Of a stretch of 43,286 bases of DNA, positions 2,804-39,249 are shown piece after piece (position 1 is the stretch's first letter; each line of letters opens with the position of its first letter). The notes beneath the pieces are model-generated. The model made no database searches and had not been told where the DNA came from. It worked only from the letters and a program-made list of their open reading frames with translations. Location: NCBI GenBank assembly GCA_051294375.1, contig JBJCIZ010000250.1, positions 1 to 43,286 on the forward strand. Reading direction: 5' to 3'. Position numbers and translations under genes: made by a program. This DNA comes from Paraspadella gotoi. Its lineage: Eukaryota > Animalia > Chaetognatha.

Positions 2804-2874
2804 AATCACTCGTGAATCATTTTAAATATTTAAAATCACTCGTGAATTCTTATCTCCCTCTGGTGAGTATAAAA
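2804..2874 (+). promoter_or_regulatory. Putative core promoter of the SMase-like gene: duplicated AATCACTCGTGAAT motif and TATA box
   Basis: AATCACTCGTGAAT at 2804-2817 and 2834-2847; TATAAAA at 2868-2874, ~80 nt before the ATG. Confidence 0.5.
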
Positions 2875-2953: not shown

Positions 2954-3108
2954 ATGAAGTCGATCGGTATTTTCTTGCTCTTTTGTCTGGCGGCGGTGAG
3001 CGGCAAGAAAGTGACCCTGTCTGTTATGAGTTACAATACGAGACAATTGCCCACGATTCCCGCAAAGTTGCCGTTCGACAGATTGCAGAGATACAAGCAC
3101 CTCGCACG
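2954..3108 (+). CDS. SMase-like gene exon 1 (signal peptide, first strand with SYN)
   Basis: ATG at 2954; MKSIGIFLLFCLAAVSGKKVTLSVMSYNTRQLP...HLA; GT donor at 3109 followed by a GA microsatellite. Confidence 0.8.
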
Positions 3109-5793
3109 GTTGTTTGAGAGAGAGAGAGATGATAGAGATGAGAAATGGAGAGAGAGAGATGAGAGGAGGAGAGACGGAGAGTGAGAGACGAGAGAGAGAG
3201 AGAGAGAGAGTGAATAATTTTTGGAATTCGCTCACTCACAGAAACGATTCACTGGATGCCAAAACAACCGGATGTTCTTGTTTTCCAGGAACTCTTTTAC
3301 AACCCGGCCGAAGATTATCTCATTAAAGTAAGACGTACAAAATTGTACATTACAATTTGGCCTAATTTACGTTTTCAAAGCTCAAACGTAAACAATGACG
3401 ACGACGACGACGACGACGACTCCTTCGCGACCCGTTGGGGTCAGTAGGAATGACCCGTTGGGGTCAGTAGAAATGACCCGTTGGGGTCAGTAGGAATGAC
3501 CCAGAAACATTCGACCTTTAACGAACCTGATAACGATAAGGAAACTTAAAAGTAATATGTATAAATTAAAGAATAAGATCCAAATATTAGGAATTATAAA
3601 GTAAAAATGTAACCTCTAGATGCTTCGCGATGAATGGAAAGACTACAAATATGCGACAGCAAACGTCGGCAACTGTTGTCAATTGAACGACTGCCCTGGA
3701 AAATGGGATTCCATCAAAGTGAGACAAGAGGGGAACGAACCTTCTTCCAGAATAAGTTCCTTATGATACACAAAAATCGGCCCTATTTTCCGAGAACGCC
3801 GAATTTCCGTTCCTGTATCCCTTTTAATAATAATTTTAATTCTCGAATTGAATTTTAAACTTTGATTGTATCCATGTTCCAATCTCTCACCTTAATCATT
3901 AACCTTAATTCCTAACCTTAAACCCTAAACTATAATCATTATCTTCAACCCAAACCTTTAATTCTATAACCCTAATCCTTAACCCTAATCTTTAACCCTA
4001 ATCCTTAACCCTAATCTATAACCCTAATCCCTAATCTCTAACCTTTATCCTTAACCCTAATCTTTAACCCTAATCCTTAACCCTAATCTCTAACCCTAAT
4101 TTCTAACCCTAATCTTTAACCCCAACCCCTAACCCAAATCTCTAACCCTAGTCCTTTAACCCTAAACCCTAATCCTTAACCCTAACCCTAATCCTTATTT
4201 TAATTCCTAATCTAATCCCCAACCCTAATCCTTTACCCTAATCCTTAACTTAATTCCCAATCTAATCCCTAACCCTATTATTTTTATATAATTTTTAAAC
4301 CGAAAAAGCCAATTTCATTCCCTATTTAAGACGAAATTGGGGGGTCTTAGGGGAAAATAAGGCCAATAAAATGAGTAAATAAAAAAAAAATGTAAATAAA
4401 AAAAACAAAACTTTCCCACCTCTTAAACCCGTCACTTGATCCTCCCACGTTTCCAGGGCGCATCGGTCTCCTCCTGCAAGCTAACCCTTTCCAAAGGGGG
4501 CGTCATCGTTCTCAGCAAATTTCCCATCGTCGCCAAAAACGCTTACGTCTTCTCGTCGTACAAAACGAACAGCGGGGATCGTCACGCTAACAAGGGGCTA
4601 GTGCATGTCAAGGCGAGTAAAAGTATCGAATCTATAGTTTGAAATAATTGATACAGTCTCGTATGAACTTATCTTATTTAGTCTAAAATGATTCTTACCC
4701 CGTTCTCCTTTCTTATATAAAGTTATTCAATCAAATGTTGTCTAATTTTTTTTTTTGTGGTCATATTTTGTCTAATATGGTCTAATTTCGTCAGATATTA
4801 TCTAACTTTGTCTAACCTCGTCTAATATTGTTTGTTTTTTCTATTTTTTAAATAGTTTGTCTAATATTGCATAATATTATCTAATTTTGTCTCACATTAT
4901 CTAATTTTTCTTAATATTGTCTAATTTCGTCTAATTCCAGTTCCAATTCTATTCAAATATTGTCTCATCTCTTTTGTTTATTAGGTAAGGAAAGACAACG
5001 AATCGTTCAACGTTTTGGGAACACACCTTCAAGCCGACGAAGCCAGTCCCGACCTCGAGGCGCAAAAGGCCAGATTCAATCAAATCGGCGAAATGTGGGT
5101 TTGGGTTAGGGACCATCTCAAAATTCCAAAGACGGAACCGGTCATTTTAGCCGGTGAGCATGAAAACCTTTGGGAGATGATAATTGAAAGATAACTATTT
5201 CATTAAATACTATGATATTGTACGAAAAATTTCAAGATTACTTGTTTCACTGATTTTTAACTAAATTTTAAAAAGAAATTTTAGCAAGTTGAAAATATGG
5301 TTGTATTTTATTTTTGAATTATTCGGTTCCAGGAGACCTGAATGTCATTCTTAACAGCGAAGAGGAAAAGAAAACTCTCGGCCCACGAGACGATTTTCAA
5401 GGTGCCTCTCTCTTTCTCCTTCTCTTCTACGGCTCACATTTTTAATATCATGAGCAATACAAACAAAAATTTTGTCCTTAATATCTTCATCATCTTTGAT
5501 CCCAGGATTCGAATTTCACTTTGACGACAGCGCAAATGACGGTTCCATCGATCGCGTCCAAAGTTTCGACGCGCGGAGCAATTTCCTTGCGAAGGCCGAC
5601 GCTAATTGGTGGCAGTACGATTACGATTGGCACGGAACTCTCGACTACGTTATGAATTTGAAGGTACTACAGTTTTTACTAGTTTTACTGTATTTTTACT
5701 ACATTTTTACTAGTTTTGTGACAAGCCAAAAGAGACTAAAACGGCAAGACAACTAAAAATGTTAATTTTTATAATGACGTTTTAGTCAAGCAG

Positions 5794-5883
<90 letters not shown>

Positions 5884-6175
5884 TTTCTCATTTTCTAATT
5901 CTGCTATCACTATAACTGGAGAACATTATAAAGTGACTATTCATACTCATATTTTCCTTCAGCAATTTAAAAATCCGACTGGAACTCCGTACATGAGGGT
6001 CATTCCTCTCAAAGCCGAGATTCCCTGGTATTGGATCGTCCTCGATGCGGACCAAGTCGTTCGATCAAACGCCCCCGAATGGTACAACCACATCAAAGGC
6101 TTAAAACCCCACGGATTTTACAGAGATATGAGCGATCATTATCCTGTTAGGGTTGACTATGTGTTTGTCTATTGA
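2954..6175 (+). CDS. Spliced gene (8 exons, ~367 aa) for a secreted sphingomyelinase C-like phosphodiesterase (EEP/DNase I fold)
   Basis: Manually spliced exons 2954-~3108, 3242-3327, 3620-3718, 4457-4612, 4985-5153, 5333-5401, 5506-5663, 5963-6175. The product has a signal peptide (MKSIGIFLLFCLAAVSG) and the family motifs in order: SYN, DVLVFQE, GGVIVLSKFPI, DRHANKG, GTHLQA, PVILAGDLN, LDYV, SDHYPV. All junction phases fit except exon 1/2. Confidence 0.9.
3242..3327 (+). CDS. SMase-like gene exon 2
   Basis: CACAG| acceptor; TIHWMPKQPDVLVFQELFYNPAEDYLIK (metal-binding QE); |GTAAGA donor. Confidence 0.85.
3429..3502. repeat. 23-bp tandem repeat x3 with internal hairpin (intron 2)
   Basis: GACCCGTTGGGGTCAGTAGGAAT at 3429, 3452, 3475. 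Confidence 0.9.
3620..3718 (+). CDS. SMase-like gene exon 3
   Basis: CTCTAG| acceptor; 99 nt, phase 0/0; MLRDEWKDYKYATANVGNCCQLNDCPGKWDSIK; |GTGAGA donor. Confidence 0.85.
3890..4280. repeat. Degenerate CCCTAA-containing minisatellite (intron 3)
   Basis: Repeated (T)AACCCTAATC(C/T)TT units. Confidence 0.85.
4457..4612 (+). CDS. SMase-like gene exon 4
   Basis: TTCCAG| acceptor; GASVSSCKLTLSKGGVIVLSKFPIVAKNAYVFSSYKTNSGDRHANKGLVHVK; AAG|GCGAGT GC donor. Confidence 0.88.
4720..4965. repeat. 10-bp degenerate minisatellite (TTGTCTAATW) in intron 4
   Basis: TCTAA recurring every ~10 nt. Confidence 0.7.
4985..5153 (+). CDS. SMase-like gene exon 5
   Basis: TTAG| acceptor; VRKDNESFNVLGTHLQADEASPDLEAQKARFNQIGEMWVWVRDHLKIPKTEPVILA(G); |GTGAGC donor. 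Confidence 0.9.
5333..5401 (+). CDS. SMase-like gene exon 6
   Basis: TTCCAG| acceptor, phase 1; (G)DLNVILNSEEEKKTLGPRDDFQ(G) completes the GDLN motif; |GTGCCT donor. Confidence 0.88.
5506..5663 (+). CDS. SMase-like gene exon 7
   Basis: CCCAG| acceptor, phase 1; FEFHFDDSANDGSIDRVQSFDARSNFLAKADANWWQYDYDWHGTLDYVMNLK; |GTACTA donor. Confidence 0.88.
5963..6175 (+). CDS. SMase-like gene exon 8 (terminal)
   Basis: TTCCTTCAG| acceptor; QFKNPTGTPYMRVIPLKAEIPWYW...GFYRDMSDHYPVRVDYVFVY-TGA. Confidence 0.9.
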   Translation, partial: QFKNPTGTPYMRVIPLKAEIPWYWIVLDADQVVRSNAPEWYNHIKGLKPHGFYRDMSDHYPVRVDYVFVY

Positions 6176-6309: not shown

Positions 6310-6315
6310 AATAAA
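6310..6315 (+). terminator. Candidate polyadenylation signal of the SMase-like gene
   Basis: AATAAA ~135 nt after the stop codon, followed by T/GT-rich sequence. Confidence 0.45.
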
Positions 6316-9160: not shown

Positions 9161-9918
9161 ATGAAATTGGTACAACCAATATAAAAATTATCCATCATTT
9201 AATAAATAAGCCATCTTGCCCCTGACTTTGGACAGCTTTGGTGGTTTAAGGCCTCCATCATCTTACAAGATAATGACATAGCAGGTGCCCGCAAGCTTCA
9301 ATCAAGACTCTCTCACAGTCTCGTTTATTCACTCCCAGAGTACCTGGCTTCCCCTATCAATGAAGTGGAAAATATTTCAAAGAATGTTTCAATTGTATTG
9401 AAAAGACCACTCCCTTAAGTATTAGATCGGGAATACTTATTGTACTCCGGCCACTAGCAAAAAATACAAGGAGCTGAATTTTATGAAATTGGTACAACAG
9501 AATATAAAATTTATCCATTCATATTAATAAATAAGCTATCTTGCCCCTGACTTTGGACAGGCTTTGGTGGTTAAGGGCCTCCATCACTCTTACAAGATAA
9601 TGACATAGCAGGTCCCTGCAAGCTTTTCAATTCAAGACTCTATCACAGTCTCGTTTATTCACTCCCAGAGTACCTGGCTTCCCTATCAATGAAGTGGAAA
9701 ATATTTCAAAGAATTTTCAATTGATGAAAAACGACCACTCCCTTAAGTATTAGATCGGGGAATACTTATTGTACTCGCACTAGCATCAAAATACAAGGAG
9801 CTGAATTTTATAAATTGGTACAACCAATAAAAAAATTATCCATTCATATTAAAATAAGCTATCTTGCCCTGACTTTGACAGGCTTTGGTGGTTTAAGGCT
9901 CATCACTCTTACAAGATA
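9161..9918 (+). repeat. ~325-bp dispersed repeat, 2.3 tandem copies
   Basis: Units start at 9161, 9483, ~9810 (ATGAAATTGGTACAAC...). Confidence 0.85.
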
Positions 9919-15908: not shown

Positions 15909-16239
15909 AGGGAGGAAAGGAAAGGAGAGGAGGAAGGGTGGAGGGAGGAAGGAAAGGAAGAGAGGAAGGGGGTGGAGTGAGGAAAACAAGACAAGAAAAA
16001 TATAGGAAAAGGAGATTAAGAGTAGGAGATTATACGTGGAAAGAAAAAGAATTTAAAAGATTAACACAAAATAATGAAATAAAAAAATAACTGTAACAAC
16101 TAACTATAACAAAAGTAAAGTATACTAAAGTTAAAAAAAATGGTCGTTAGAATAGACTATAGTTATCCATTTTTATCAAGTTGAGAGAGACATGAATGGT
16201 AAAATGGCAATATAGAGTCAGGAAAATGGAAAATAAAAG

Positions 16240-16288
<49 letters not shown>

Positions 16289-16470
16289 AGAGAGAGAAGA
16301 GAGAGAGAGAGAGAAGAGGAGAGAGAGAGAGAGAGAGAGGTGATGGCCAAAGGGAATCCCTTTAGGGAAAAATAAAACTGAAAAAGAATTAAAGGAACGA
16401 GGGCGGATAAAAGGAGCCAGTCACGATATATTCCTTTTCATCGTGGAGAGAGAGAGAGAGAGAGAGAGAG

Positions 16471-16528
<58 letters not shown>

Positions 16529-17454
16529 TTTGAACCTTTTTCCTTGAGACTCAAATTGAAACAAATATTAGGGAAAATAAAAAATCTAATTGAATTCCAA
16601 AATTCGTTCTTACCTTTCGATTTAATCTCATGTCCTCAGTAAAAGTATACGAAAAATTAATTTATATTTTCAAACGATTGGTAATCATTAAAATGGAAAA
16701 TGGTTTGACTCTTTTCATTTATTGTACTCTTTCTAAAGAGTCCTAACTTAAAAAGGACCAAAACATAAAATTAGGATGATGTGCATAATGGACGAACGAT
16801 CAGTAGGATTACAACGGGGATTACAACTGCACTTGGCGATACAAATGAGGAAAATGTAAAATTATTAGCAGCTCAAATATCTTACAAGACAAGGCGAAAG
16901 CCAAAACGAGCATGAAGACGACAACGACGACGACGACGAAGACAACGACGACAAAGTCAATGACAGTTTCCACGTATTAATTTGATTGTTTACTTAATAG
17001 TTGATTTAATATGAGTTTAATCTATTGTCGCCAATGACGAAGACAAAAATGGCCGCTACCACGCCAACTTCGACGCCAACGATGACGGCAAAATGACGCC
17101 AACACGACGTCATAACCACCCAAAACACGACCACCTCCTTGCATTGCGTGTCCTCCGGACGAACTTGCCTTCGTGGGAAAACCGGCATCGAAAAATCTCC
17201 GAACCGGATTCTCAAGTTGCAGAAGAAGAAAGAAAAAAAAGGTTTTTGGCGGGAAATTGCAAAATATGGATGGACGAAAAAATCTGGAGAGATGCAGGAA
17301 AGGAGAAAGAGCGAGAGAGAGAGAGAGAGACGAGAGAGAGAGAGAGAGAGACGAGGGTAGGAATCCGGTGGGATAAAACAAAAAGAGATTGAACAGGAGG
17401 GCGGGCAAGGACTTCGTCATATCAGAAAAGCGGAGAAAGATGAACGGAAGAGGA

Positions 17455-17516
<62 letters not shown>

Positions 17517-19595
17517 TTTGTACCTTCGTCCACCAAAGCGTCTGACACAAAAGGCGAGAAAACATAATCAAGTCTGGCGCCAGTAATCCCTTCATCGGCC
17601 CCTTCTCAACCCCTGACTCCCCTTCCACCCCATGTCTCCCTCTTTCGCCCGGCCGCCTTGTGCACACTCTCTCCAGACCCCCTAACTCAACTGGCCCGGA
17701 TCGCGTTCGCTCCGCGGATGTCGCACACGTCAGCCTAAGGAGACATAAGGTAGATTTTTTCTTTCGTCGCCCGCCACTGAACGTTCGAAATCACCCCTTG
17801 TTCTCCTCGACGGCCGAACTTTATTTCGTTTCCGCCGTCTTATTCGTTGTCTGTTCTCTGTATTATTTACTTGTTTGTTTTACATTTTTAATGTGTCCTC
17901 TTTCTTTCTTGCATCTTTGTGTATTGTTTTGATTCTCGTTCGGTTATTTCTCAATCGCGTGCTACTGGTCTTTATTATTTTTGGAATCAATCACTTGGTT
18001 CCAATTCCGTGGCACATAGTCGTTTCGCTGATTTGCGTTTATCGTCGTTCGTTGTCAGTCTGTAAATGCTCGCTCCCGTCGATCTCAGACCTAAGGAAGG
18101 GCTCTGGTCGTGTCGTGTTGTCGTCCGTCGTACTATTCGTCGTCTCTTGTCTGTAGGCTCCACATCTCGGCTTGATCTATTGTCTCGGTTCCAAGCATTG
18201 TTTCCGCATCGACGCAAACTGTCCATCTGATATCAGTGACAGCCCTAACTTTCCCAACACACTAGTCGACCACGGTCTACCCTGTACCTGTCGTCCGTCT
18301 CGCAGCAAACCCCGTCATCCACCTTGTTGCTCACACCTTTTCCGTAGTTTATTTATGAGGTTGTTCGCCTTTGTATTTCTCCCTCTTCTCCGTCTTCTTT
18401 TAAGTGATATTCACTATCAGCACATTAATCGGTGCTCACCTGCTCAATCCAACAACTTCTGGTTCTTTTACTGTTTTAACGCTGGGGAGTATGAGAGCAT
18501 GTACATAAAATGGGTTCAACTTGTCTTTTGTCGTGCGTTGTCGTCGTCATTCCGCTAAACTGTTGTAGTCTCTAGCTGTCCGCGCCGATGCCAATCGCAT
18601 ACCGCGTCCTGGTCCATCCGTCGTTGTAGACTATATGTTTTGTAGTTAGCATGCGTCACGTCCTGTTGTATACGATTCGCCACTCCGTCCATCCGGAGTG
18701 TTAATTCGCTCGTTGTCGCTATTGTTGCGTGGCGCCAACCAGTCAGTGCCGAGTCGTTCGTCTGTATTACAGACTTCCGACCAGATCTTGCAGTCTGAAG
18801 TTTTCCCATTGTTCCGACTCCGTAACCGTCCTCAACTCCACCGGTCGGTTGTCGCGTCTTATACAAGTTACTTGTTCCTCGTTTCGAGTTGAGATCTGCG
18901 TAACCCGTTCGTCGTCCCTCGGATACTGGTTCGTACTGCTGCCGCCCGGTATATTCCTTCGCTTTTAATCGATAGTTCCATCCTGCAACAAAAAAAAAAA
19001 CATACCAAATTCCAATACTAATTTTACATGTTACACATATCATGAACTAACAATAACCTCCCAACAAAAAAGACATACAAACACAAGATTTAGAAAAAAA
19101 GAGTAATCCGTATTGCTAAAAGAATAAGATTTATCTCTCTCTTCACTCACGGAAATACACATCAATAATCTTCCCTTCTCTCTATCCTCCCTCTCTGCCT
19201 ACCTCTTCCTTCTTCTCATTCATCCTACCTTCCAATCTCTACTCTTTCTATGAGGGAGGAAAGGAAAGGAAGAGGAGGGAAGGGGGTGGAGTGAGGAAAA
19301 GAAAGACAAGAAAAATATAGGAAAAGGAGATTTTAAGAGTAGGAGATTATACGTGGAAAGAAAAAGAATTTAAAAAGATTAACACAAAATAATGAAATAA
19401 AAAAATAAACTGTAACAACTAAACTATAACAAGAAGTAAAGTATACTAAAGTTAAAAAAATGGTTCGTTAGAATAAGACTATAAGTTAATCCCATTTTAT
19501 CAAGNNNNNNNNNNNNNNNNNNNNNNNNNTATCAAGTTGAGAGAGACATGAATGGTAAAATGGCAATATAGAGTCAGGAAAATGGAAAATAAAAG

Positions 19596-19644
<49 letters not shown>

Positions 19645-19826
19645 AGAGAGAGAAGAGAGAGAGAGAGAGAAGAGGAGAGAGAGAGAGAGAGAGAGGTGAT
19701 GGCCAAAGGGAATCCCTTTAGGGAAAAATAAAACTGAAAAAGAATTAAAGGAACGAGGGCGGATAAAAGGAGCCAGTCACGATATATTCCTTTTCATCGT
19801 GGAGAGAGAGAGAGAGAGAGAGAGAG

Positions 19827-19884
<58 letters not shown>

Positions 19885-20810
19885 TTTGAACCTTTTTCCT
19901 TGAGACTCAAATTGAAACAAATATTAGGGAAAATAAAAAATCTAATTGAATTCCAAAATTCGTTCTTACCTTTCGATTTAATCTCATGTCCTCAGTAAAA
20001 GTATACGAAAAATTAATTTATATTTTCAAACGATTGGTAATCATTAAAATGGAAAATGGTTTGACTCTTTTCATTTATTGTACTCTTTCTAAAGAGTCCT
20101 AACTTAAAAAGGACCAAAACATAAAATTAGGATGATGTGCATAATGGACGAACGATCAGTAGGATTACAACGGGGATTACAACTGCACTTGGCGATACAA
20201 ATGAGGAAAATGTAAAATTATTAGCAGCTCAAATATCTTACAAGACAAGGCGAAAGCCAAAACGAGCATGAAGACGACAACGACGACGACGACGAAGACA
20301 ACGACGACAAAGTCAATGACAGTTTCCACGTATTAATTTGATTGTTTACTTAATAGTTGATTTAATATGAGTTTAATCTATTGTCGCCAATGACGAAGAC
20401 AAAAATGGCCGCTACCACGCCAACTTCGACGCCAACGATGACGGCAAAATGACGCCAACACGACGTCATAACCACCCAAAACACGACCACCTCCTTGCAT
20501 TGCGTGTCCTCCGGACGAACTTGCCTTCGTGGGAAAACCGGCATCGAAAAATCTCCGAACCGGATTCTCAAGTTGCAGAAGAAGAAAGAAAAAAAAGGTT
20601 TTTGGCGGGAAATTGCAAAATATGGATGGACGAAAAAATCTGGAGAGATGCAGGAAAGGAGAAAGAGCGAGAGAGAGAGAGAGAGACGAGAGAGAGAGAG
20701 AGAGAGACGAGGGTAGGAATCCGGTGGGATAAAACAAAAAGAGATTGAACAGGAGGGCGGGCAAGGACTTCGTCATATCAGAAAAGCGGAGAAAGATGAA
20801 CGGAAGAGGA

Positions 20811-20872
<62 letters not shown>

Positions 20873-23561
20873 TTTGTACCTTCGTCCACCAAAGCGTCTG
20901 ACACAAAAGGCGAGAAAACATAATCAAGTCTGGCGCCAGTAATCCCTTCATCGGCCCCTTCTCAACCCCTGACTCCCCTTCCACCCCATGTCTCCCTCTT
21001 TCGCCCGGCCGCCTTGTGCACACTCTCTCCAGACCCCCTAACTCAACTGGCCCGGATCGCGTTCGCTCCGCGGATGTCGCACACGTCAGCCTAAGGAGAC
21101 ATAAGGTAGATTTTTTCTTTCGTCGCCCGCCACTGAACGTTCGAAATCACCCCTTGTTCTCCTCGACGGCCGAACTTTATTTCGTTTCCGCCGTCTTATT
21201 CGTTGTCTGTTCTCTGTATTATTTACTTGTTTGTTTTACATTTTTAATGTGTCCTCTTTCTTTCTTGCATCTTTGTGTATTGTTTTGATTCTCGTTCGGT
21301 TATTTCTCAATCGCGTGCTACTGGTCTTTATTATTTTTGGAATCAATCACTTGGTTCCAATTCCGTGGCACATAGTCGTTTCGCTGATTTGCGTTTATCG
21401 TCGTTCGTTGTCAGTCTGTAAATGCTCGCTCCCGTCGATCTCAGACCTAAGGAAGGGCTCTGGTCGTGTCGTGTTGTCGTCCGTCGTACTATTCGTCGTC
21501 TCTTGTCTGTAGGCTCCACATCTCGGCTTGATCTATTGTCTCGGTTCCAAGCATTGTTTCCGCATCGACGCAAACTGTCCATCTGATATCAGTGACAGCC
21601 CTAACTTTCCCAACACACTAGTCGACCACGGTCTACCCTGTACCTGTCGTCCGTCTCGCAGCAAACCCCGTCATCCACCTTGTTGCTCACACCTTTTCCG
21701 TAGTTTATTTATGAGGTTGTTCGCCTTTGTATTTCTCCCTCTTCTCCGTCTTCTTTTAAGTGATATTCACTATCAGCACATTAATCGGTGCTCACCTGCT
21801 CAATCCAACAACTTCTGGTTCTTTTACTGTTTTAACGCTGGGGAGTATGAGAGCATGTACATAAAATGGGTTCAACTTGTCTTTTGTCGTGCGTTGTCGT
21901 CGTCATTCCGCTAAACTGTTGTAGTCTCTAGCTGTCCGCGCCGATGCCAATCGCATACCGCGTCCTGGTCCATCCGTCGTTGTAGACTATATGTTTTGTA
22001 GTTAGCATGCGTCACGTCCTGTTGTATACGATTCGCCACTCCGTCCATCCGGAGTGTTAATTCGCTCGTTGTCGCTATTGTTGCGTGGCGCCAACCAGTC
22101 AGTGCCGAGTCGTTCGTCTGTATTACAGACTTCCGACCAGATCTTGCAGTCTGAAGTTTTCCCATTGTTCCGACTCCGTAACCGTCCTCAACTCCACCGG
22201 TCGGTTGTCGCGTCTTATACAAGTTACTTGTTCCTCGTTTCGAGTTGAGATCTGCGTAACCCGTTCGTCGTCCCTCGGATACTGGTTCGTACTGCTGCCG
22301 CCCGGTATATTCCTTCGCTTTTAATCGATAGTTCCATCCTGCAACAAAAAAAAAAACATACCAAATTCCAATACTAATTTTACATGTTACACATATCATG
22401 AACTAACAATAACCTCCCAACAAAAAAGACATACAAACACAAGATTTAGAAAAAAAGAGTAATCCGTATTGCTAAAAGAATAAGATTTATCTCTCTCTTC
22501 ACTCACGGAAATACACATCAATAATCTTCCCTTCTCTCTATCCTCCCTCTCTGCCTACCTCTTCCTTCTTCTCATTCATCCTACCTTCCAATCTCTACTC
22601 TTTCTATGAGAGAGAGAGAGAGAGAGAGATTTGAACCTTTTTCCTTTGAGACCTCAAATTGAAACAAATATTAGGAAAATAAAAAATCTAATTGAATTCC
22701 AAATTCCGTTCTTACCTTTTCGATTTAATCTCATGTCCTCAGTAAAAGTATACGAAAATAACTTTATATTTTCAAACGATTGGTAATCATTAAAATGGAA
22801 AATGGTTTGACTCTTTTCATTTATTGTACTCTTTCTAAACAGTCCTAACTTAAAAAGGACCAAAACATAAAATTAGGATGATGTGCATAATGACGAACGA
22901 TCAGTAGGATTACAACGGGGATTACAACTGCACTGGCGATACAAATGAGGAAAATGTAAAATGTATTAGCAGCTCAAATATCTTACAAGACAAGGCGAAA
23001 GCCAAAACGAGCATGAAGACGACAACGACGACGACGACGAAGACAACGACGACAAAGTCAATGACAGTTTCCACGTATTTAATTTGATTGTTTACTTAAT
23101 AGTTGATTTAAATATGAGTTTTAATCTATTGTCGCCAATGACGAAGACAAAAATGGCCGCTACCACGCCAACTTCGACGCCAACGATGACGGCAAAATGA
23201 CGCCAACAACGACGTCAATAACCACGCCAAAACACGACCACCTCCTTGCATTGCGTGTCCTCCGGACGAAACTTGCCCTTCGTGGGAAAACCGCATCGAA
23301 AAATCTCCGAACTCGGATTCTCAAAGTTGCAGAAGAAGAAAAAAAAAGGTTTTTGGCGGGAAATTGCAAAATATGGATGGACGAAAAAATCTGGAGAGAT
23401 GCAGGAAAGGAGAAAGAGCGAGAGAGAGAGAGAGAGACGAGAGAGAGAGAGAGAGAGACGAGGGTAGGAATCCGGTGGGATAAAACAAAAAGAGATTGAA
23501 CAGGAGGGCGGGCAAGGACTTCGTCATATCAGAAAAGCGGAGAAAGATGAACGGAAGAGGA

Positions 23562-25515: not shown

Positions 25516-27306
25516 ACTCTCCCTCCCTTTGTCCCTTCCCTCTCCTAACTAATCTTTCTCCAAATTCCTACTCTCCCTCCCTTTCTAAACTCTCCTTTTA
25601 CTCCTTTACCTATCTTTTTCATCCCTCTCTATCTTCTCTCTCTTTCTTCTCTTTCTTTACTTTTCTTTTTTCTCTCCTTCTCTTCTTAACCTTCTCGCCG
25701 ACGGAGAATCAAGAGGCTTTGCTCGCCAACGTCTTTACGTCTCTCTCTNNNNNNNNNNNNNNNNNNNNNNNNNNNNNNNNNNNNNNNNNNNNNNNNNNNN
25801 NNNNNNNNNNNNNNNNNNNNNNNNNNNNNNNNNNNNNNNNNNNNNNNNNNNNNNNNNNNNNNNNNNNNNNNNNNNNNNNNNNNNNNNNNNNNNNNNNNNN
25901 NNNNNNNNNNNNNNNNNNNNNNNNNNNNNNNNNNNNNNNNNNNNNNNNNNNNNNNNNNNNNNNNNTCTCTCTCTCTCTCTCCTTCCCTTGCAGCGAGAGT
26001 CGCCAAACGTGAATATCACAAGGAAGACTTCATTGCGTTTCTCCTTGGTTACCAGGCTCCAATGCTTGATTACCTAAATCGATTGCTTGGTCGCCGCCAG
26101 CAAATCACAAGAAACGCAGGTTGCCGAAATTGGTCGGAGAGTCTTTGTTTCCGGAGCCGGAAAATTGGAATTAGTCCGGAGAAAATGCTACTTTTTCGAC
26201 GCGACATTAAATCGTGAATGACTTAATCTAAATCAACGATACGTGATTAGTGATTACCTGCCATTATAAAATATATTATAACCTAACTGATAACAATATC
26301 AGATTAATTAAGATCTTTTTTAAAAAAAAAAACTCTTATAATAATACACGACAACTTTACTAAGTTACCTTCAAAAATGTTAAAACATGTGTAAAACATA
26401 AGGCTTCATGTCATTAACCAATTTTACTATAAGTTTTTTTTTTCTGATTTGACATTGCTCTTTTGCTTTGCCTTCAAAGCAAAGCCTTTGACAAAAAGTT
26501 GTATTCATGCCGGCTGAGTTCAGATTCATTTTCGCTCGTGTATTCAGCGGAGATCAGCAATAATAGATTCACTTAATTAACAAAGGCGTCGCCGCTGGGC
26601 TGAGTGGGTCGTCCATTGACGAAGAGAACGAAGTAGATTCGCGTCGGAGGAAAGAGGATAGAGAGAAAGAAGAAAATAATGGAGGAAAAGGAAAGGAAAG
26701 GAATGAGAAAAATAATGGAGAGGATGGTGAAGGGAGAAAGAAAAAAAGGGAAGAAGTAAAGAGAATAGAATGGAGGAAAGGAAACGAAAGAGAAAAATAA
26801 TGGAGAGGCTGGTGAAGGGAGGAAGAAAAAAAGGAAAAGAAAGAGAAAAAGAATGGAGAGGTTGGTGAAGGGAGGAAGAAAAATGGAAAGGAAAAAAAGA
26901 TAATAGAATGGAGGAAAGGAAAGAAAATAGAAAAAAGAATGGAGAGGACTGATAAAGGAAGAAAAGATATAGAAACAAGATCGGTTCATCCAATGTCCAA
27001 CTAAAAAGAAAGAAAAGAAATCTCCGCGAGTGAGATTTTCGAGCGAAGCAGCTTCGGACGAAGGAGGAAAAAGAAGAGAAGAGAGAGAAAGGAAAGGATT
27101 AGGAGGAGAAGGTAATAAAGAGTCGAGGGAGGATAAGAGTAAACAGTAATTAAGAGGAATGAAGGGAAGGAAGAAATGAAGGTATTAAAGAGAAGACCGG
27201 CGAGATAAGGCAAGGGAGGTGTTAAGAATCGGACATCTTACGGGGGAAAAGATGACATTCTGGTGGTCCTATCACCACAGATGATTAAAGCTGTTTCTTT
27301 CGCTGC

Positions 27307-27537
27307 GCCTCAGTGGCTCAGTGGACTAATGCACCATCCCAATGTGCGTCCCTGGTTCGAGCCCTGAGGTTGTCATGTAGAAAGTGGGATGGACCGGGTA
27401 ACCCGCCTGTAGGCATGGGCCTACTGCCGGATCCAAAGCTCTGTACTACACGAACATGCTGTCTCGCTGACGCCACGATGTGACACCGCTGCGGGTGTGG
27501 CGCCCTGTAAAACCAGCCTCTTCAACATAGCTTTTTT
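27307..27537 (+). mobile_element. tRNA-derived SINE-like / Pol III transcription unit carrying a twister ribozyme
   Basis: A box TGGCTCAGTGG 27314-27324; B box GGTTCGAGCC 27354-27363; acceptor-stem-like GCCTCAG (27307-13) / CTGAGGT (27364-70); GC-rich structured body; T6 run 27532-27537. Confidence 0.7.
27376..27450 (+). ncRNA. Twister self-cleaving ribozyme, circularly permuted (type P5)
   Basis: P5 TGTAG/CTACA; P2 GTGG/CC(-)C; conserved GA (27388-89); T1 TGGA (27390-93) / TCCA (27432-35); UAA cleavage motif 27399-401; T2 GC (27405-06) / GC (27438-39); P3 GTAGGC/GCCTAC; P4 CGGA/TCTG closing 8-nt loop TCCAAAGC. Confidence 0.75.
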
Positions 27538-27849
27538 ATAATTTGAAATATCAACGAAGGAAGTAGGCCTAGTTTATTGATGAGAAATTGAAGGAGTTTT
27601 ATTAATACAAATAAACGAAGAGGTAATGAGAATTTAAGGCGATTATGAAGAATAAACAGACAGTAAACAAATACAGTAGAAAAAGAAGAAGAAACGGGCT
27701 AGTTAAAAAATGTAACTAAATCACAAAAAGGAATGATATTTAAATACTTTCCTACTGATAACATGAGTCAATAATCTTATATGACGATTATTGGTCGAAA
27801 ATATTCGAGGTCATACGAGAAAATATACGAGACATTGCAATTAAAGGTT

Positions 27850-27940
27850 GCCATTGCAAGTTGGCATTGCGAGTTGGCATTGCAAGTTGGCATTGCAAGT
27901 TCGTATTGCAAGTTGGCATTGCAAGTTGGCATTGCAAGTT
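27850..27940. repeat. 13-bp tandem repeat (TTGCAAGTTGGCA)n
   Basis: Direct inspection. Confidence 0.9.
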
Positions 27941-28391
27941 AATCGTGATAGTTTGATCAACACATTTTACTGCATTTTCTTCTGGCAACTAAACACCATC
28001 AAGATAANNNNNNNNNNNNNNNNNNNNNNNNNNNNNNNNNNNNNNNNNNNNNNNNNNNNNNNNNNNNNNNNNNNNNNNNNNNNNNNNNNNNNNNNNNNNN
28101 NNNNNNNNNNNNNNNNNNNNNNNNNNNNNNNNNNNNNNNNNNNNNNNNNNNNNNNNNNNNNNNNNNNNNNNNNNNNNNNNNNNNNNNNNNNNNNNNNNNN
28201 NNNNNNNNNNNNNNNNNNNNNNNNNNNNNNNNNNNNNNNNNNNNNNNNNNNNNNNNNNNNNNNNNNNNNNNNNNNNNNNNNNNNNNNNNNNNNNNNNNNN
28301 NNNNNNNNNNNNNNNNNNNNNNNNNNNNNNNNNNNNNNNNNNNNNNNNNNNNNNNNNNNNNNNNNNNNNNNNNNNNNNNNNNNNNNNNNNN

Positions 28392-28423
<32 letters not shown>

Positions 28424-28939
28424 AAACTTGCAATAGATTTTCTCGCAATAAAAACCATTCACAATAGCTTTTCAGGAATTTATTTCGCTCGCCATACATT
28501 GATTATTCCCTTGACTAACGAAATTTAACCTAGATTTAAACTAACATCTTCATAAAAATAAAATACAATATATCAATATAATCAATATATATATATAGAT
28601 ATTATTATCTTGTAAGTGAGATAGAGGCCCTAAACCTCCTTAGCTTATTTAATAAATGAATGGATTATTATTACATTGGTTGGAACAATTTCTCAAACAT
28701 TCTTAGTTTTCAATAAAAGAATGAAAAAAAACATAAAAAATTACATCCAATCATGAAAGTAATTTTTGGAAAGATCGTTTGACCTTTTGACCTTCATGAA
28801 TATCACTTCAAGTCCGTCTCTTTCGGCTCTTGGCAAAAATTCCATTTTTTTGGCGAATGGATTCAATTTTTTCTCCTCATTTCCGCCACAATTTTTCATT
28901 TGAGACGTTGGACGGGCCTTATTTTCCCAGAACGCTCCG

Positions 28940-29410
28940 GAGATAGGCGGACCGAGGAAGGAGCAGGGCGTTAACCTGGAGGCCCATTTTCAAAATATAA
29001 CATTGTGTACGAGATAGGCGGACCGTGGAAGGAGCAGGGCGTTAACCTGGAGGCCCTTTTTCAAAANNNNNNNNNNNNNNNNNNNNNNNNNNNNNNNNNN
29101 NNNNNNNNNNNNNNNNNNNNNNNNNNNNNNNNNNNNNNNNNNNNNNNNNNNNNNNNNNNNNNNNNNNNNNNNNNNNNNNNNNNNNNNNNNNNNNNNNNNN
29201 NNNNNNNNNNNNNNNNNNNNNNNNNNNNNNNNNNNNNNNNNNNNNNNNNNNNNNNNNNNNNNNNNNNNNNNNNNNNNNNNNNNNNNNNNNNNNNNNNNNN
29301 NNNNNNNNNNNNNNNNNNNNNNNNNNNNNNNNNNNNNNNNNNNNNNNNNNNNNNNNNNNNNNNNNNNNNNNNGTTAACCTGGAGGCCCTTTTTCAAAATA
29401 TAACATTGTG
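28940..29410. repeat. 71-bp tandem repeat (spans an N gap; about 6 noisy units visible at 35013-35425)
   Basis: GAGATAGGCGGACCG(A/T)GGAAGGAGCAGGGCGTTAACCTGGAGGCCC...CATTGTGTAC at 28940 and 29011. Confidence 0.85.
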
Positions 29411-29686
29411 CCTCCGTTTCATCTTAAATTCGGAAATTAGTTTATTTTTAGGTTTCAAGATTAGGTTGAATTTGAAGGTAATGGTTAAGGATTAAGTTAA
29501 TGATTAGGTTCGAGTTAGGGTCAAGTTAGGGTTAGAGTGATTGAGTAGTTCAGTGATTAAATAGTTAAGTGACCGGTGATTAGCGTGAGAGAACTTAGGA
29601 ATATGTTTGGATACCAAGATTTATCTACAATTTTTAATAATCGTAGGAAAACCTTTATCTCNNNNNNNNNNNNNNNNNNNNNNNNN

Positions 29687-30980: not shown

Positions 30981-33900
30981 GAGAGGAGAGAGAGTAGGTT
31001 GTTTTCGGCTGAAGTGATCACGAAGTGTTGTTAAAAAGGACAAAAGGTTTAAATTGTGTTTGATAAATATAGAGCTATAGAGCTAATGATGTAGTTATAA
31101 TTTAAGAGATATGTTATTGTAGCAGGTGAAGGCTAAAATAAGTAAGTGAGATTCCTTTTTGTGAATGAGCATCGACGTGATTGTTTATCATTTTTATCAG
31201 TGATATGTGGTTGTGATCCCAGCTGAATTAATAATTGTATAATTTTGACTATTTTTTTCGGCGATAAAGAAATAAAATTTTGTCGAATACTGCTATCCTA
31301 CCTAATGTAATTTTATAGTTTGCGCCGCGAGTATCTGTAGTCACTGTTCGGTCGGTTGTCGGTCGTCGGTATGTCTGTTCATCGGGATTGTCTTAGTGAA
31401 AAATGCCAATAAGTTGCACATATTGTTTGCTCGATGTCATTTGTTAGAGGGAAATTTTTCAAATTTATAAGTCATGAATTATAAAAAACAAGATAACGGA
31501 GATGTCCGATGTACGTGGTCGGTAAAGGAAAGGGTTATTGTGTAGTTGCATGTAGTATGTTGTCACGTCTATGTCATGTATTTACACTCCTCCTTTGCTT
31601 CCTCTCCTAACTATTCTTTTCCGAAATCTATCTCCTTCGGTAAACTCTTCCTTTTATCTCCTTTAGAACCTATTTATTTCACCTTCTCTCTTTTCTGTTT
31701 TTTTTTTACTTTTTTTTTTTTCCTTTTCTCTTTAGATAGGCTTTGTTCGCTGAGCAGGAATCAAGAGGCTTTTGCTTTTGCATCTGTCTTTTACGTTCTC
31801 TGCTCTCTCTTCTACTCGTCTGTCTCTTTCTTCTTCCTCTTATCTCTTCTCTCTTTGTGTGTTGTTGTGTCTCTGGTGTTTCGTCTCTTGTTCTGTCGGT
31901 TCCTGTTCTCATTTAGTTCCTGTTCCTGGAAACCTCGCGTATGGTGTGATCATGTTACTGAGGTTGCCTGTTGTGGTTTGCAGAGGCCGGGAGGATAAGT
32001 CTTCAATTCATATTTGGTGCTCTCTCTTCTCTCTCTTGCTTGACGTTTTGCTCTTCTCTCTCTTCTCTCTCGTGTGCCCTTTGCAGCTGAGGAGTTTGCT
32101 AAATTCGTGAATTATCATACAAGGAAGAGCTTTCATTGTTGGTTTCTCCTTTGGTTCAGGCCAATGTGCTTTGTTACTAAATGATTGCTGTGGTCGCCGA
32201 GCAATGATCACAAGAAACAGGTGTTTGTTGAATTGGTTGGTTAGAGTCGTTTTGTTTCCGGGATGTGTCGGTATAGAATTTGGAATTAGTGGCTGGTAGA
32301 ATTTGTGGTGCTACTTGTCGATCTGCGAGTAGTTAAAGTGTGAATTGAGTTAATTATCATCGATACTTTGTATTAGTGGATTTTACGTCTGCATTGATAT
32401 ATAATTATTATGAGCGCTAATTCTGATTAAATTAGTAGATTATTAAGGATCTTTTTTAAAATAAAAAAACTCTTGATAAATGATACACGACAACTTTAAG
32501 TTACCTCAAATATGTTAGAAACATGTGTAAACATAAGGCTTTCATTGTCTTATTGAAGTCGAATGTTACTATGAAGTTTTTTTTTCTGATTTGGATCATC
32601 TTTTTGCTTTGCCTTTCAAGCAGAGCCTTTGATCGAAAAGATTGTATTCAGCCGTTTTGAAGTTGAGATTCATTTTTTTCGCTCTCATGTGTATTGTTTT
32701 TGCTGTGAGATGGCTAATGATAGATTCAGCTTAATGTAAAAGGGTGCCGTGGGCTGAGTGGGTGTTATTGACGAAGAGAAGAAGTACGATTCGCGTTGGA
32801 GGAAAGAGGATAGAAGAAAGAGTAAAATTAGATGGAGAAAAGGAAAGGAAGGAATGAGAAGAAATTTGGAGAGGATGGTGAAGTTAAGTTATAAGTAAAA
32901 AGGGAAGAGTGAAAGAGATGATGAGGAAGAAGAATAGAAAAAAATGGAGAGGGGCTGGTGAAGGGAGGAGAAAAAAAGAAAGAAGAAAAAAGAATGGAGA
33001 GGTTGTGAAGGGGAATATGAATTAATGAAAGAAAAATAAGATAATAGAATGTTGTGAAGGAGAAGAAAATTGAAAAGAAGAATGGAGAGGATGGAATAAT
33101 GGAGAAAGATATAGAGACAAGATCGGTTCATCAATGTCCAACTAAAATATGTAAAGGAAAGAAATTCGCGAGTGAGATTTTTGGAGCTCGAAGCAGCTTG
33201 GCGAGAGGAGAAATAAGGAAGAGATAGGAGAGAGAGGGAAGGATTGGAGGAGAAGTGTATGAAAGAGTCGAGGTGAGGATATGGAGTAAACAGTAATTTT
33301 AAGATGTGAATGAAGGGAAGGAAGAAAGGAGGTATTAAAGAGAAGACCGGATATTAAGGCAAGGGAGGTGTTGAGAGGGGGGTCGGATCATCTTTACGGG
33401 GAAAGATGACATTCTGGTGTGTCCTATCACGACATGATGATTTAAAGTGTTTCTTTTGGTGCGTTCTAGTGGTCTCAGTGACTAATGCACGATCTCCATG
33501 GTGCGTCGTGGTTGTAGCCTGAGTTTATGTAGAAAGTGGGATGGACGGTACACGCTGTAGGCAATGGGCACTGCGGATACAAAGCTTCTGTACTACACGA
33601 AATGCTGTCTCGTGTACGGACGGATGTGACACCGCTGCGGGTGTGGCGACTGGAAAAACAGACTCTTAACATAGCTTTTATTATAAATTTTGAAATGATC
33701 AGAAGGAAGTAGACTAGTTTAGTGATGAGAATTGAAGGAGTTTTTTATGACAAATAAACGAAGAGTAATGAGATTTAAGGCGATTCTGAAGAATTAACAG
33801 ACAGTAAACAAGTAACTTGTAGAAAAGAGAAGAAGACGGGCTAGTTAAAATGGTAACTAAATCACAAAAGGAATGAATATTTAAATACTGTCTACTGATA

Positions 33901-35660
33901 ACATGATCAATAATGTTATTATTGACGATTTTATTGGTCGAAATATTCGAGGTCATACGAGAAAATATACGAGAGCTATTGCAATTATAATGGTTGCTTG
34001 CAGTTGGCATTGTCGAGTTGGCATTGCAATTGCATTGTGCATTTTCTTTGTATTGGCTAATTGGCTTGCATGTTGGCATTGAAGTTTGCGTGATTATGTT
34101 TGCACTCACACATTTTACTGCATTTTTTTCTGGTATTTATTTATCTTTATTATTTTTATAATTTGTAGTCTAAAGAAGTGTGGCCCATTTTCTCTTCTTC
34201 TCTCTTCTTTCTCTCTCTCTCTCTCTTCTCTCTCTCTGCTTCTGTCTCTCTTCTCTTTCTTTCTCTCTCAATTCTTTGCCAAGAGGAGTTCTATTTTTAG
34301 TACCCCCAAATCGCTTCGATACTTATTTTATGAGGAACTCTCATCTTTTTATGGCGAGGAAACAGTTTTCGCCAGATTCGCGTAGATAGAATTAAATGAG
34401 CGAGAGATCGAGAGAGAAGAGATGAGAGAGAGAGAGAGAAGCGAGAGGAGATGAGAGAGAGAGAGAGAGAGAAAAAGAGTAGAGAGAGATGAGGAGAGAG
34501 AGAAGAAGAAATCAATAGATTTCCTCTATAAAAAACCATTTCGACAATTTTTTATTGCTTTGCAGGATTTTATTTCGTGTATCTGCATACATCTGATTAT
34601 CTTGACTATCAAATTTAACTAGATTTAAACTAACATTATAAAATAAAATACAATATTAATATATTAATATATATTATAGATATTATTATCTGTAAGTGAG
34701 ATAGAGGCCTAAACTCCCTTAGTTATTTAATAATGAATGGATTATTATTACATTTGGGTGGAGAACAATTTCTCAAACATTTCTTAGTTTTCAATAAAAG
34801 GAATGAAAAAAAAAGTAAAAAATTACATCCATATGAAAGTATTTTTGGAGATTGTATTGACCTTTTGACCTTCATGAATATCACTTCAAGTCAGTCTCTT
34901 TCGGCCTTGGACAAAAATTGCCTTTTTTGGGAATGGATTATTTTTTCACTCATTGTCGCAATTATTTTCATAATTGAGCGTTGGACGGGCTTATTTTCCC
35001 AGAACGCTTCCGGAGATAGGCGGACCGGGAAGAGCAAGGCAGTTAACTGGAGGCCGATTTTCAAAATATAACTTGTGTACGAAATAGGCGGACGTGGAAG
35101 GAAGAGGGCGTTAACGCTGGAGGCCTTTTTCAAATATACATTGTGTACGTAGATAGGGAACCGTGGAAAGGAGCAGGTGTTAAACCTGGAGCCCTTTTTC
35201 AAAATATAACATTGTGTAGGAGATAGGCGGCCGAGGAAGGAGCGGCGTTTACAACTGTGGGAGGCCATTTTTCAATATAACATTGTGTACAGAGATGAGG
35301 GGACCGAGGAGAGGAGCAGGGCGTTAACACTGGAGGCTCTTTTTCAAAATATAACATGTGTAGAGTAGGCGGACGAGGAAAGAGAGGGCGTTAACTGTGA
35401 GGCGCTTTTCAAAAATATAAATTGGTCTCAGTTTCATCTTAAATTCGGAAGATTAGTTTATTTTTTAGGTTTCAAGATTAGGTTGAATTGAAGGTAATGG
35501 TTAAGGATATAGTTAATTGAGTAAGGGTTGAGGTTAGGTGCCAAGTTAGGGTTAGAGTATTGAGTAGTTTAGTTGATTATATTAAGTGACCGGTATTAGG
35601 TGGAGAATACTAGGATATGTTTGGATAAACCAAGATTTATCTACATTTTTAATAATGTAG
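29687..35660 (+). repeat. Noisy duplicate of ~23230-29661; probable raw long-read insertion
   Basis: Colinear with dense indels; starts right after the 25-N join at 29662-29686. Confidence 0.85.
33463..33679 (+). mobile_element. Error-laden second copy of the tRNA-SINE/twister unit (probably the same locus from a raw long read)
   Basis: Colinear with 27307-27537 inside the noisy duplicated block 29687-35660; twister part ~33528-33597. Confidence 0.55.
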
Positions 35661-37351
35661 GAAAACTTATATTCAAGACCTATTACAATGAAAAATACTT
35701 TTAGAAATTGTTCCGTTTTCTTAGTCGATTGCTTATCAGCAGATCCGTCTTAACTCACTTTTTATACTCACTTTTTTTCGGCCGTCGGTCGCCGCTCAAT
35801 TATTGTCGGGCAAACACTTATATCAATGTCAAACATCGAATTATGATAAGTTATCAAAAAAAATGATGTCCGTCGCCTCTGTCTGTCCGTCCGGTCGTCG
35901 TCCGTCCGTCCCCTTAATAGCAAATAACACCAATTACGGGGGTTTTTGGATTGATGGATTTAAATGTGTATAATTTTTTGTGTGTGATAGGTAATTGTGT
36001 GTGATGTGTCTGGATATGAGTTTTCGATTGTGATATGCTGTCCATGTTGTTAATTGGAGTTGTGAAGATGGAAATTAACATAATTAATGATATATTTTTC
36101 GTATTGGAAATGCCATTTGCCTCTATGATTGGAATTGGCTGATTGTACTCTTTTGGCAATTTTATGTGGTAGGAATTGTTGTTATTGTACAGGAAACAAG
36201 TTTTCGATGGAATAGTTGATGGAAATGAGTTTAAAGGAAAAAACAAACCAACATGTTTTATTACTATGATTATGCTCTTTTGCTTTTATATTAAATGTGT
36301 ATGCTGCAGGATTATTAATAAATACATAATTTAATCAGTTAATTAATCAATTAGTAATAATTAATAATAATTAATTAATTAGTCATTCAATCCGTCATCC
36401 GTCATCTTAGCAAAAAGCTCCAATAAAACTCGTGATTGGCTGGTTGGATATGGAATTTATAATTTTATGTGTGGGTCGGGAGTGTGTGAATAAATTGCTG
36501 AATCCGTGTGAGTGGAAATTAGTTTAAGATGGAAAACATAAGTGAATTTATAAAATCTTTTTATTTATTTACCAATAAATACTTTCCATATCATATTGGA
36601 TGGATAGATTGAGTTGAATTTGGTGTGTGGGTAGGAAAACGTATGAGCAAGCTTGAATATAAAAGTTTCAGTGGAAGTACCAGTGGAAAATGAAGTTTAA
36701 AATAAAAAATATGAGTCACATTTACTTGAAATCTTTTTATTTTATTTTACCCATGATAGTGGGATGAATTTTGTGGCCGGTAGAGTGAGTGAGAAACTAG
36801 TATATAAATTATTGACGGAAATGCAAGTTGAAAAAAATTAAATGCAAAAGTTGATAAAATGAATGCAAGTAAAAAATCTTAAAAGCCATAAGGATGTACT
36901 ATCTGCATAAAAAGAGAGAGAGAGAGAGAGTGAAGAGAGAGTGGAAGAGAGAGAGAGAAGAGTGAGAGAGAAAAAGAGAGAAGAGTGAGAGAGAGAGAGA
37001 GAGAAGGAAGACTAAATAAAAAATCTTAAAAAAGACTCAAAGATCGAGCCAGAGCCACTAATATGAAAAATTATGAAAAAAAGGAAAAACGAATGAACAT
37101 GCGATAACGAATTGTTTGATGTACTTAGTATTGATTGAGGTTATATAATTGATGATGTAATAGTAATTTATTGATGTTATGGAATTGATTATTGACTATC
37201 GATGAAATGAATTTTGATGGCGATGAAGTCGCATTCACTGCTGTGATGATAGTCTTCAGTGAATGGAATGATGTCTTTCATTGATGCGATGATTGTCTTC
37301 ATTGATTGGATGATAGTCAATAAAAACAATTGCCGTGTTATGAGTGAAAGA

Positions 37352-39133: not shown

Positions 39134-39249
39134 ACCCGAGTAGTTCTCGGGCTGAAATAAATAAAGAAACACTCTTTGAGTGTTCCTCTCCACGGAAATC
39201 TTTAGTAAAAGGCGAAAGATTTGTGCGCTCTGAAGAGAAACCAGAGTTG
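39134..39249 (-). ncRNA. RNU5: U5 spliceosomal snRNA (variant Sm site)
   Basis: Minus strand reads ACTCTGGTTTCTCTTCAGAGCGCACAAATCTTTCGCCTTTTACTAAAGATTTCCGTGGAGAGGAACACTC...; invariant loop 1 GCCUUUUAC (plus 39205-39213); 3' hairpin GCCCGAG-AACTA-CTCGGGT; length ~116 nt. Confidence 0.93.

Follow-up and report, generated by a model that had tools for sequence, protein, structure and literature searches.

A spliced sphingomyelinase C-type gene in the chaetognath Paraspadella gotoi, predicted to encode a secreted enzyme of possible bacterial ancestry

The 43,286-nt contig JBJCIZ010000250.1 of the chaetognath Paraspadella gotoi (GenBank assembly GCA_051294375.1; all of it analysed, and hereafter called the window) carries at 2954..6175 on the forward strand a gene that is real, spliced and transcribed. 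Its protein is supported as being of the bacterial sphingomyelinase C (SMase C) type, rather than belonging to SMPD2/SMPD3 or to another EEP family. The account that we favour, and hold to be somewhat probable as a whole, is that this transcribed eight-exon gene encodes a predicted secreted, metal-dependent SMase C-type phospholipase, obtained from an aquatic bacterium in the distant past and used in the digestion or remodelling of extracellular lipids.

Gene structure and expression

Three-frame translation gives a coding span of eight exons, from an ATG at 2954 to a stop codon at 6173-6175, with junctions 2-7 in phase. Nine sequencing runs from three studies contain the stretch, six of which hold at least half of its sequence words; the run holding most of it may be the source of the window itself. 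In one run, X9, a single contig of 1,001 nt (depth 41) aligns to the window in exactly eight pieces, which are the eight exons (3026-3104, 3239-3327, 3620-3718, 4457-4610, 4983-5152, 5332-5399, 5504-5661 and 5961-6144). Eight DNA runs from two studies contain the locus, and DNA runs of several samples cover exons and introns alike; in X9, several bins that lie wholly within introns have zero depth, while the DNA runs extend across them. The status of X9 as RNA is a guess joined to its spliced contig, as no run is recorded as RNA, and the comparison used assembled contigs only. The seven introns proposed from the sequence in the initial annotation are thus borne out by a contig that matches all exons and skips all introns.

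Every motif of the series quoted in that annotation is present and in order. Exon 1 (2954..3108, its end lying at about 3108) encodes the predicted signal peptide (approximately residues 1-17) and an SYN motif equivalent to N16 of Bacillus cereus SMase. Exon 2 (3242..3327) carries PDVLVFQELFYN, with the metal-binding Glu equivalent to E53 and the equivalents of the edge-site residues F55 and N57, and exon 3 (3620..3718) a Cys-rich loop with three of the four cysteines of the mature chain. GGVIVLSKFPI and DRHANKG lie in exon 4 (4457..4612), where the acidic edge-site pair equivalent to E99/D100 is absent. Exon 5 (4985..5153) encodes GTHLQ with the catalytic His (H151 equivalent) and one N-glycosylation sequon, exon 6 (5333..5401) GDLN (D195/N197 equivalents), and exon 7 (5506..5663) SFDARSN and LDY (D253 equivalent). 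Exon 8 (5963..6175) contains the aromatic WYW segment, an extended loop, SDHYPV (D295/H296 equivalents) and the stop codon. Intron 3 (3719..4456, 738 nt) includes a degenerate TAACCC-type repeat at approximately 3895-4270, and intron 4 (4613..4984, 372 nt) is of the GC-AG type, its donor being GC, not GT. A TATA-like box of presumed function lies at 2868..2873 on the forward strand, 86 nt upstream of the ATG, and a putative polyadenylation signal, AATAAA, at 6310..6315 on the same strand.

As assembled, exon 1 lacks an in-phase GT donor and is out of frame with exon 2. Comparison of the runs with the window exposed four spurious letters at its donor end (3107-3114), absent from all three DNA runs compared. 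Because the DNA runs lack these letters and the RNA contig is spliced there, the frame break is an error in the window and not the mark of a pseudogene. A non-canonical GA donor for intron 1 had been entertained, and was dropped once the four-letter error was exposed.

The X9 contig differs from the window at seven exonic positions, and the six listed comprise five synonymous changes and one Leu-to-Val replacement. Against an expected synonymous share of 20%, this gives p = 0.002 (5 of 6) or p = 0.005 (5 of 7), and the gene is apparently under purifying selection. Separately, one contig of run X5 (depth 11) has a Leu-to-Arg change in the conserved LDY motif at window position 5641, either an error or a rare allele. 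The signs of host integration looked for in a domesticated transfer were all found: introns, splicing, presence in the DNA of several individuals and apparent purifying selection.

These data bear on the possibility that a bacterial contaminant, a misassembly or a broken relic has been mistaken for a gene in a noisy assembly. The window is indeed rich in errors (N gaps, a 3,085-nt tandem duplicate at 99.97% identity, degraded copies at 81-86%), the assembled exon 1 breaks the frame, and the window shows no other recognisable protein gene. Set against this, one transcript-like contig has had all seven spliceosomal introns spliced out, the DNA runs cover exons and introns without the four extra letters, and the variation is mostly synonymous. 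The run comparison largely refutes this explanation, which we regard as extremely improbable.

Family assignment and predicted protein

Two of the eight exons match the SMase C profile TIGR03395, exon 4 at 3e-8 and exon 5 at 2.4e-5; none of the eight matched Pfam. A search of the PDB with exons 4 and 5 returned SMase C chains exclusively. When a Salinivibrio SMase was aligned to the window by tblastn, collinear pieces fell on exons 1, 2, 4, 5, 7 and 8 with a summed E of 2.8e-16, and this alignment takes in both the Cys loop and the aromatic C-terminal segment. For structure we used P0222, the closest full-length relative (51% identical), whose model has a predicted local distance difference test score (pLDDT) of 91.5. 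Foldseek matched it to bacterial SMase C at E = 1e-27 versus 9e-15 for SMPD2. Superposition gave a VIA Z of 37.1 and a root-mean-square deviation (rmsd) of 2.3 over 288 aligned residues for SMase C, compared with a Z of 26.9 and an rmsd of 2.8 over 267 aligned residues for SMPD2. The bacterial match lies well above human SMPD2, SMPD3 and TDP2. A profile built from the seven closest eukaryote-like relatives likewise gave 1e-51 for B. cereus SMase, compared with 1.6e-11 for human SMPD3 and 1.6e-5 for human SMPD2.

We compared the protein with a reference set of bacterial SMase C enzymes, represented by TIGR03395 and by B. cereus (2DDR), Staphylococcus aureus beta-toxin (3I5V), Listeria ivanovii SmcL (1ZWX) and Streptomyces griseocarneus (7CNE). 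Like them, it has a single EEP/DNase I-fold domain, is predicted to be secreted, and keeps an identical motif order and all residues of the central site. These enzymes are the best structural match of P0222, to which they are approximately 27-29% identical. The window gene departs from them in its seven introns, in a helix predicted where they have a hairpin, and in the absence of the acidic edge pair and of the C123-C159 disulfide. Animal SMPD2 and SMPD3 (8J2F, 5UVG) have the EEP fold and catalytic core in common with it; they are 13-16% identical to P0222, and their profile score is weaker by at least 40 orders of magnitude. SMPD2 and SMPD3 are membrane-anchored, whereas the window protein has no transmembrane segment. 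It is thus neither closer to SMPD2/SMPD3 than to bacterial SMase C nor anchored as they are; profile, fold and structure comparisons agree in upholding the bacterial type first proposed.

Its nearest named relatives form a marine SMase C-like subfamily, annotated as 'sphingomyelin phosphodiesterase' or 'phospholipase C', with members from Pseudoalteromonas, Shewanella, Salinivibrio (WP_269580470.1), Photobacterium, Spartinivicinus, Zooshikella and the diatom Seminavis robusta (CAB9523443.1). The window protein and this subfamily fall on the same strongly supported branch at 30-36% identity and have in common a Cys loop with WD, a YN..QLP start, an SF...SNW/F..KA segment, WYW and a GY/FY.D.SDHYPV end. 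The window protein differs from the subfamily in two extra cysteines, a longer C-terminal loop, its introns and a long branch. The Cys loop and the aromatic segment had been singled out in the initial annotation as special features; both turn out to be common to the bacterial members.

The N-terminus is signal-peptide-like, as judged by eye and from hydropathy. Windows of 19 residues exceed 1.25 only in the N-terminal ~26 residues, where they peak at 1.8; the rest of the chain stays at or below 1.21, and the protein therefore has no transmembrane segment. A secretion signal without a membrane anchor, as in SMase C, is in line with what had been proposed, on hydropathy and inspection only. We assigned B. 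cereus residue numbers through a Bacillus mycoides protein, cross-checked with PDB alignments, and took the roles of the residues partly from the accessible portion of PMC9710629 and partly from general knowledge. All eight central-site residues (N16, E53, H151, D195, N197, D253, D295 and H296) are kept. Two of the four residues of the edge metal site (F55, N57, E99, D100) are retained, namely the F and the N, and the acidic pair is absent; this site is also variable among staphylococcal members, according to the part of PMC9710629 available to us. The B. cereus disulfide C123-C159 is absent and another Cys loop takes its place; the mature chain has four cysteines, two more than the marine subfamily.

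The WYW patch is nearly invariant across 13 aligned C-terminal pieces, and the aromatic loop is 12-14 residues longer than in relatives. The segment lies at the position of the B. cereus hairpin and had been proposed to form a membrane-binding hairpin itself. Both models speak for a helix: one is modelled in P0222 (H326-330), and exon 8 folded alone places one on the aromatic segment at low confidence (pLDDT 59).

Three considerations weigh against the favoured account here. The TIGR03395 cut-off of 248.2 bits was reached by none of the nine subfamily proteins scanned (P0222 scores 121, P0088 163 and the Salinivibrio protein 185 bits). The structure models cover only the relative P0222 and exon 8. 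Among the sources consulted the subfamily is without a characterised member, its activity being predicted. From its sequence, we place the protein outside the classical SMase C clade, with a predicted SMase C-like function; that the enzyme has SMase C-type activity is, as a prediction, quite likely.

Relatives, phylogeny and origin

Ranked by identity to the window protein, translated with an X standing for each junction, P0222 (51%) and P0037 (47%) come first, followed by P0088 (36%), bacteria (30-36%) and Seminavis (31%). The first three are transcript-like sequences without an organism name. A phmmer search with P0037 over 1.84 billion representatives returned 137 proteins, and a profile of two bacterial proteins together with the exons retrieved 80 homologs among 7,570 candidates. 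An organism name is attached to 43 of these 80: 42 are bacteria and one is a diatom, with no animal, fungus or plant. Among 30 proteins checked for a source organism, names came back for Seminavis, Zooshikella and Microcoleus. The best matches in the plasmid collection were Vibrionaceae proteins, and the ESM Atlas gave bacterial SMase clusters for P0037 and nothing for exon 4. An alignment scan found 140 loci, of which 80 were kept, none more than 35% identical to the window protein. A metagenome scan with P0222 confirmed none of 413 candidates; word-index searches with single exons confirmed none of 12 for exon 4 and none of seven for exon 8, which is weak evidence. The sole match in the genome collection proved spurious.

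Three of the loci (L007, L017 and L021) are contigs with a single open reading frame (ORF) and 3' flanks of 25-29% GC, two of them with AATAAA; the 14 other loci examined are gene-dense, with 76-93% ORF cover. The AT-rich flanks of the three are as in eukaryotic mRNA. All three come from one JGI data set and fall in three different sub-clades, and genes of the family are commonly expressed in that community. Two relatives break at intron positions of the window gene. P0037 lacks 16 residues in a gap that starts exactly at the position of intron 4, and the fragment P0169, which is P0088-like, begins to match at that of intron 7. The P0037 gap takes in the catalytic His of GTHLQ and ends at a Gln codon in its relative; P0037 probably derives from a transcript spliced at a cryptic acceptor. 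These protein-level breakpoints suggest that intron 4 is common to P0037, and intron 7 to P0169.

For phylogeny, 250 proteins with a domain match were reduced to 197 of near full length and to 141 after removal of near-duplicates; trees were also calculated from hand-picked sets of 58 and then 45 rows, the latter including three locus translations, with animal neutral SMases left out. With 100/99 support, the mixture-model tree of 45 rows separated the subfamily from Bacillus, Leptospira and Agromyces, the window gene falling inside this bacteria-dominated group. The window gene, P0222 and P0037 form a clade at 100/100, joined by P0088 at 96/90 (100/96 in the 58-row tree). An approximately unbiased (AU) test rejected one clade with Bacillus and Leptospira (p = 6.2e-5). 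The B. cereus/Staphylococcus-type enzymes, named as nearest in the initial annotation, are displaced by the separate, mostly marine subfamily.

Horizontal origin is the most likely reading of these data, and a bacterial source by old transfer is probable. Because the closest relatives (51%, 47% and 36%) are transcript-like sequences, any transfer must be old and shared; it would predate the divergence from hosts whose present copies are only approximately 50% identical. Several results pull the other way. The tree backbone is poorly supported, and the window gene sits on a long branch without a firm sister group. The AU test did not reject a single clade with diatoms (p = 0.071) or sisterhood to the Vibrionaceae/Alteromonadales clade (p = 0.079). 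A 13-row group of sequences without organism name forms a clade at only 64/88, its members having been picked after the first tree was seen, and the two guides from which the homolog search started were bacterial, a bias towards bacterial matches.

Part of this evidence would fit an old eukaryotic SMase C-like lineage, arising from a very ancient acquisition or spread between eukaryotes and now patchy in diatoms and some animals, in place of a lineage-specific domestication. A diatom-type clade of 4-5 sequences with Seminavis (100/100) belongs to the same subfamily, which holds several eukaryote-like clades whose union in a single clade is not rejected, and intron-like breakpoints occur in relatives from other sub-clades (P0241, P0113 and P0179). 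The best trees, however, part the diatom clade from the window group with bacteria between them, at weak support; no animal, fungal or plant member is present among the 43 named homologs, and the Seminavis protein lacks a signal-peptide-like start. We hold this lineage to be unlikely. A broad, vertically inherited animal clade, which the initial annotation had set as its own refutation, finds no named sequence that fits, although the gene does sit among eukaryote-like relatives. Of the bacterial gene proposed there, acquired and then given introns, the introns and splicing are seen and the horizontal origin is most likely, while its alternatives are not rejected. The diatom-type clade itself (P0045, P0044, P0047, P0048 and P0050, with Seminavis) possibly records a separate transfer. 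By eye, P0095, P0096 and P0089 are long, bacterial-looking fusions of an SMase domain with other domains, lipase-like in P0096 and repeat or propeller-like in P0095 and P0089.

Proposed function, surroundings and significance

In the mechanism that we propose, the N-terminal peptide would direct the protein into the secretory pathway, where its four cysteines could form loop disulfides. Mg2+ bound at an E53/H296-type central site would activate water, a mechanism borrowed from B. cereus SMase, to break the phosphodiester bond of sphingomyelin or a similar sphingolipid, leaving ceramide and a phospho-head group. Docking on lipid surfaces may fall to the conserved aromatic WYW patch, where the classical enzymes use a hairpin. 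Introns would have been gained after the transfer, at least one probably being common to relatives. Many invertebrates use ethanolamine or phosphonate sphingolipids, and the true substrate may therefore differ from sphingomyelin. The enzyme would act outside the cell, in digestion or the remodelling of surface lipids.

We consider a digestive or housekeeping role, as opposed to one in venom, to be fairly probable. A transferred gene could have been recruited as a toxin for venom or defence that removes sphingomyelin from prey or predator membranes in the manner of staphylococcal beta-toxin; the predicted secreted form, the intact central site, the extra disulfide-capable cysteines and the longer aromatic loop would suit this, and it is because of this loop that we keep the toxin reading open. 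Against it, venom families evolve fast, in contrast to the mostly synonymous variation here, and the first 36 kb of the window contain a single copy. In its favour, SMase C enzymes of bacteria cause haemolysis according to the portion of PMC9710629 available, and the accessible text of PMC11319779 reports that of B. cereus to be insecticidal. As precedent for bacterial toxin genes moving into animal venoms (PMC11319779 and PMC6299612, in their accessible parts), the former mentions transfers into centipedes and caterpillars. The window protein lacks the acidic edge-site pair, however, and the models show a helix and not a hairpin. In B. cereus SMase, residues of the edge site and of the hairpin contribute to the binding and lysis of erythrocytes, and mutation of the edge pair or loss of the hairpin apex lowers both binding and haemolysis (PMC9710629, available sections). 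This partial absence of edge-site and hairpin features leads us to prefer a part in digestion or in remodelling surface lipids to one resembling that of beta-toxin, and we rate the toxin as distinctly unlikely.

The secreted tick enzyme offered in the initial annotation as a precedent does not serve as one, since IsSMase is a protein of the SMase D/GDPD family and an ortholog of spider-venom SMase D (PMC7325911, as far as its text was accessible). With this precedent a different enzyme, half of the edge metal site missing and a helix for a hairpin, the toxin use suggested there loses much of its ground. The GDPD-like SMase D/phospholipase D (PLD) enzymes of spiders, ticks and an 'aquatic clade' do provide the closest parallel: in what could be consulted of PMC6299612 and PMC7325911, they are secreted enzymes that cleave sphingolipids, probably arose in proteobacteria and occur sporadically in aquatic eukaryotes, and the aquatic clade spread partly by lateral transfer (PMC6299612). 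Their fold (a TIM barrel) is unrelated and their cleavage D-type, and they are not homologous to the window gene. A broader scenario, in which a group of marine invertebrates shares an undescribed family of secreted, intron-bearing SMase C enzymes from one ancient marine-bacterial transfer, with several paralogous clades and a predatory or defensive, membrane-damaging use in this animal, seems to us very unlikely.

Beyond the gene, the window is a eukaryotic contig, noisy and rich in repeats. Of its 80 other ORFs, 79 are without a Pfam match and one has a low-complexity match. A U5 spliceosomal snRNA gene lies at 39134-39249 on the reverse strand (94 bits), with a 5' stem that we take to resemble the animal type, and not the plant or yeast types; no tRNA genes were found in the window. 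The tandem duplicate pairs 16174-19258 with 19530-22614, and degraded copies (81-87%, with many small indels) pair 25966-27985 with 32055-34133 and 28393-29652 with 34476-35666; these are likely assembly artefacts from uncorrected long reads. A dispersed repeat of ~270 nt at 2397-2663, just upstream of the gene, is 93% identical to two inverted copies at 9161-9748, and by eye a similar copy lies near 40620-40810. Also by eye, a GC-rich stretch on the reverse strand at approximately 40110-40250, after a pyrimidine tract and AG and without a family match, may represent the final exon of an adjacent gene. CpG is not depleted (observed/expected 0.97 overall and 1.31 in exons), and AG and ACG microsatellites are very dense across the window.

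The sphingomyelinases known from animals are membrane-bound neutral enzymes, acid enzymes and the SMase D of arachnids. An SMase C of bacterial type, secreted and with introns of its own, would add a fourth route to extracellular ceramide, and the window gene would provide a dated example of introns acquired after a transfer. The transfer of bacterial lipases and toxins into invertebrates is already a known kind of event; in the literature searched, whose coverage mostly excludes subscription journals, we found no report of an animal SMase C acquired in this way. If true, the predatory or defensive reading would give the transferred SMase D toxins a C-type equivalent. More broadly, the gene draws attention to a marine subfamily of SMase C, so far uncharacterised, that extends across bacteria, diatoms and plankton-like transcripts.

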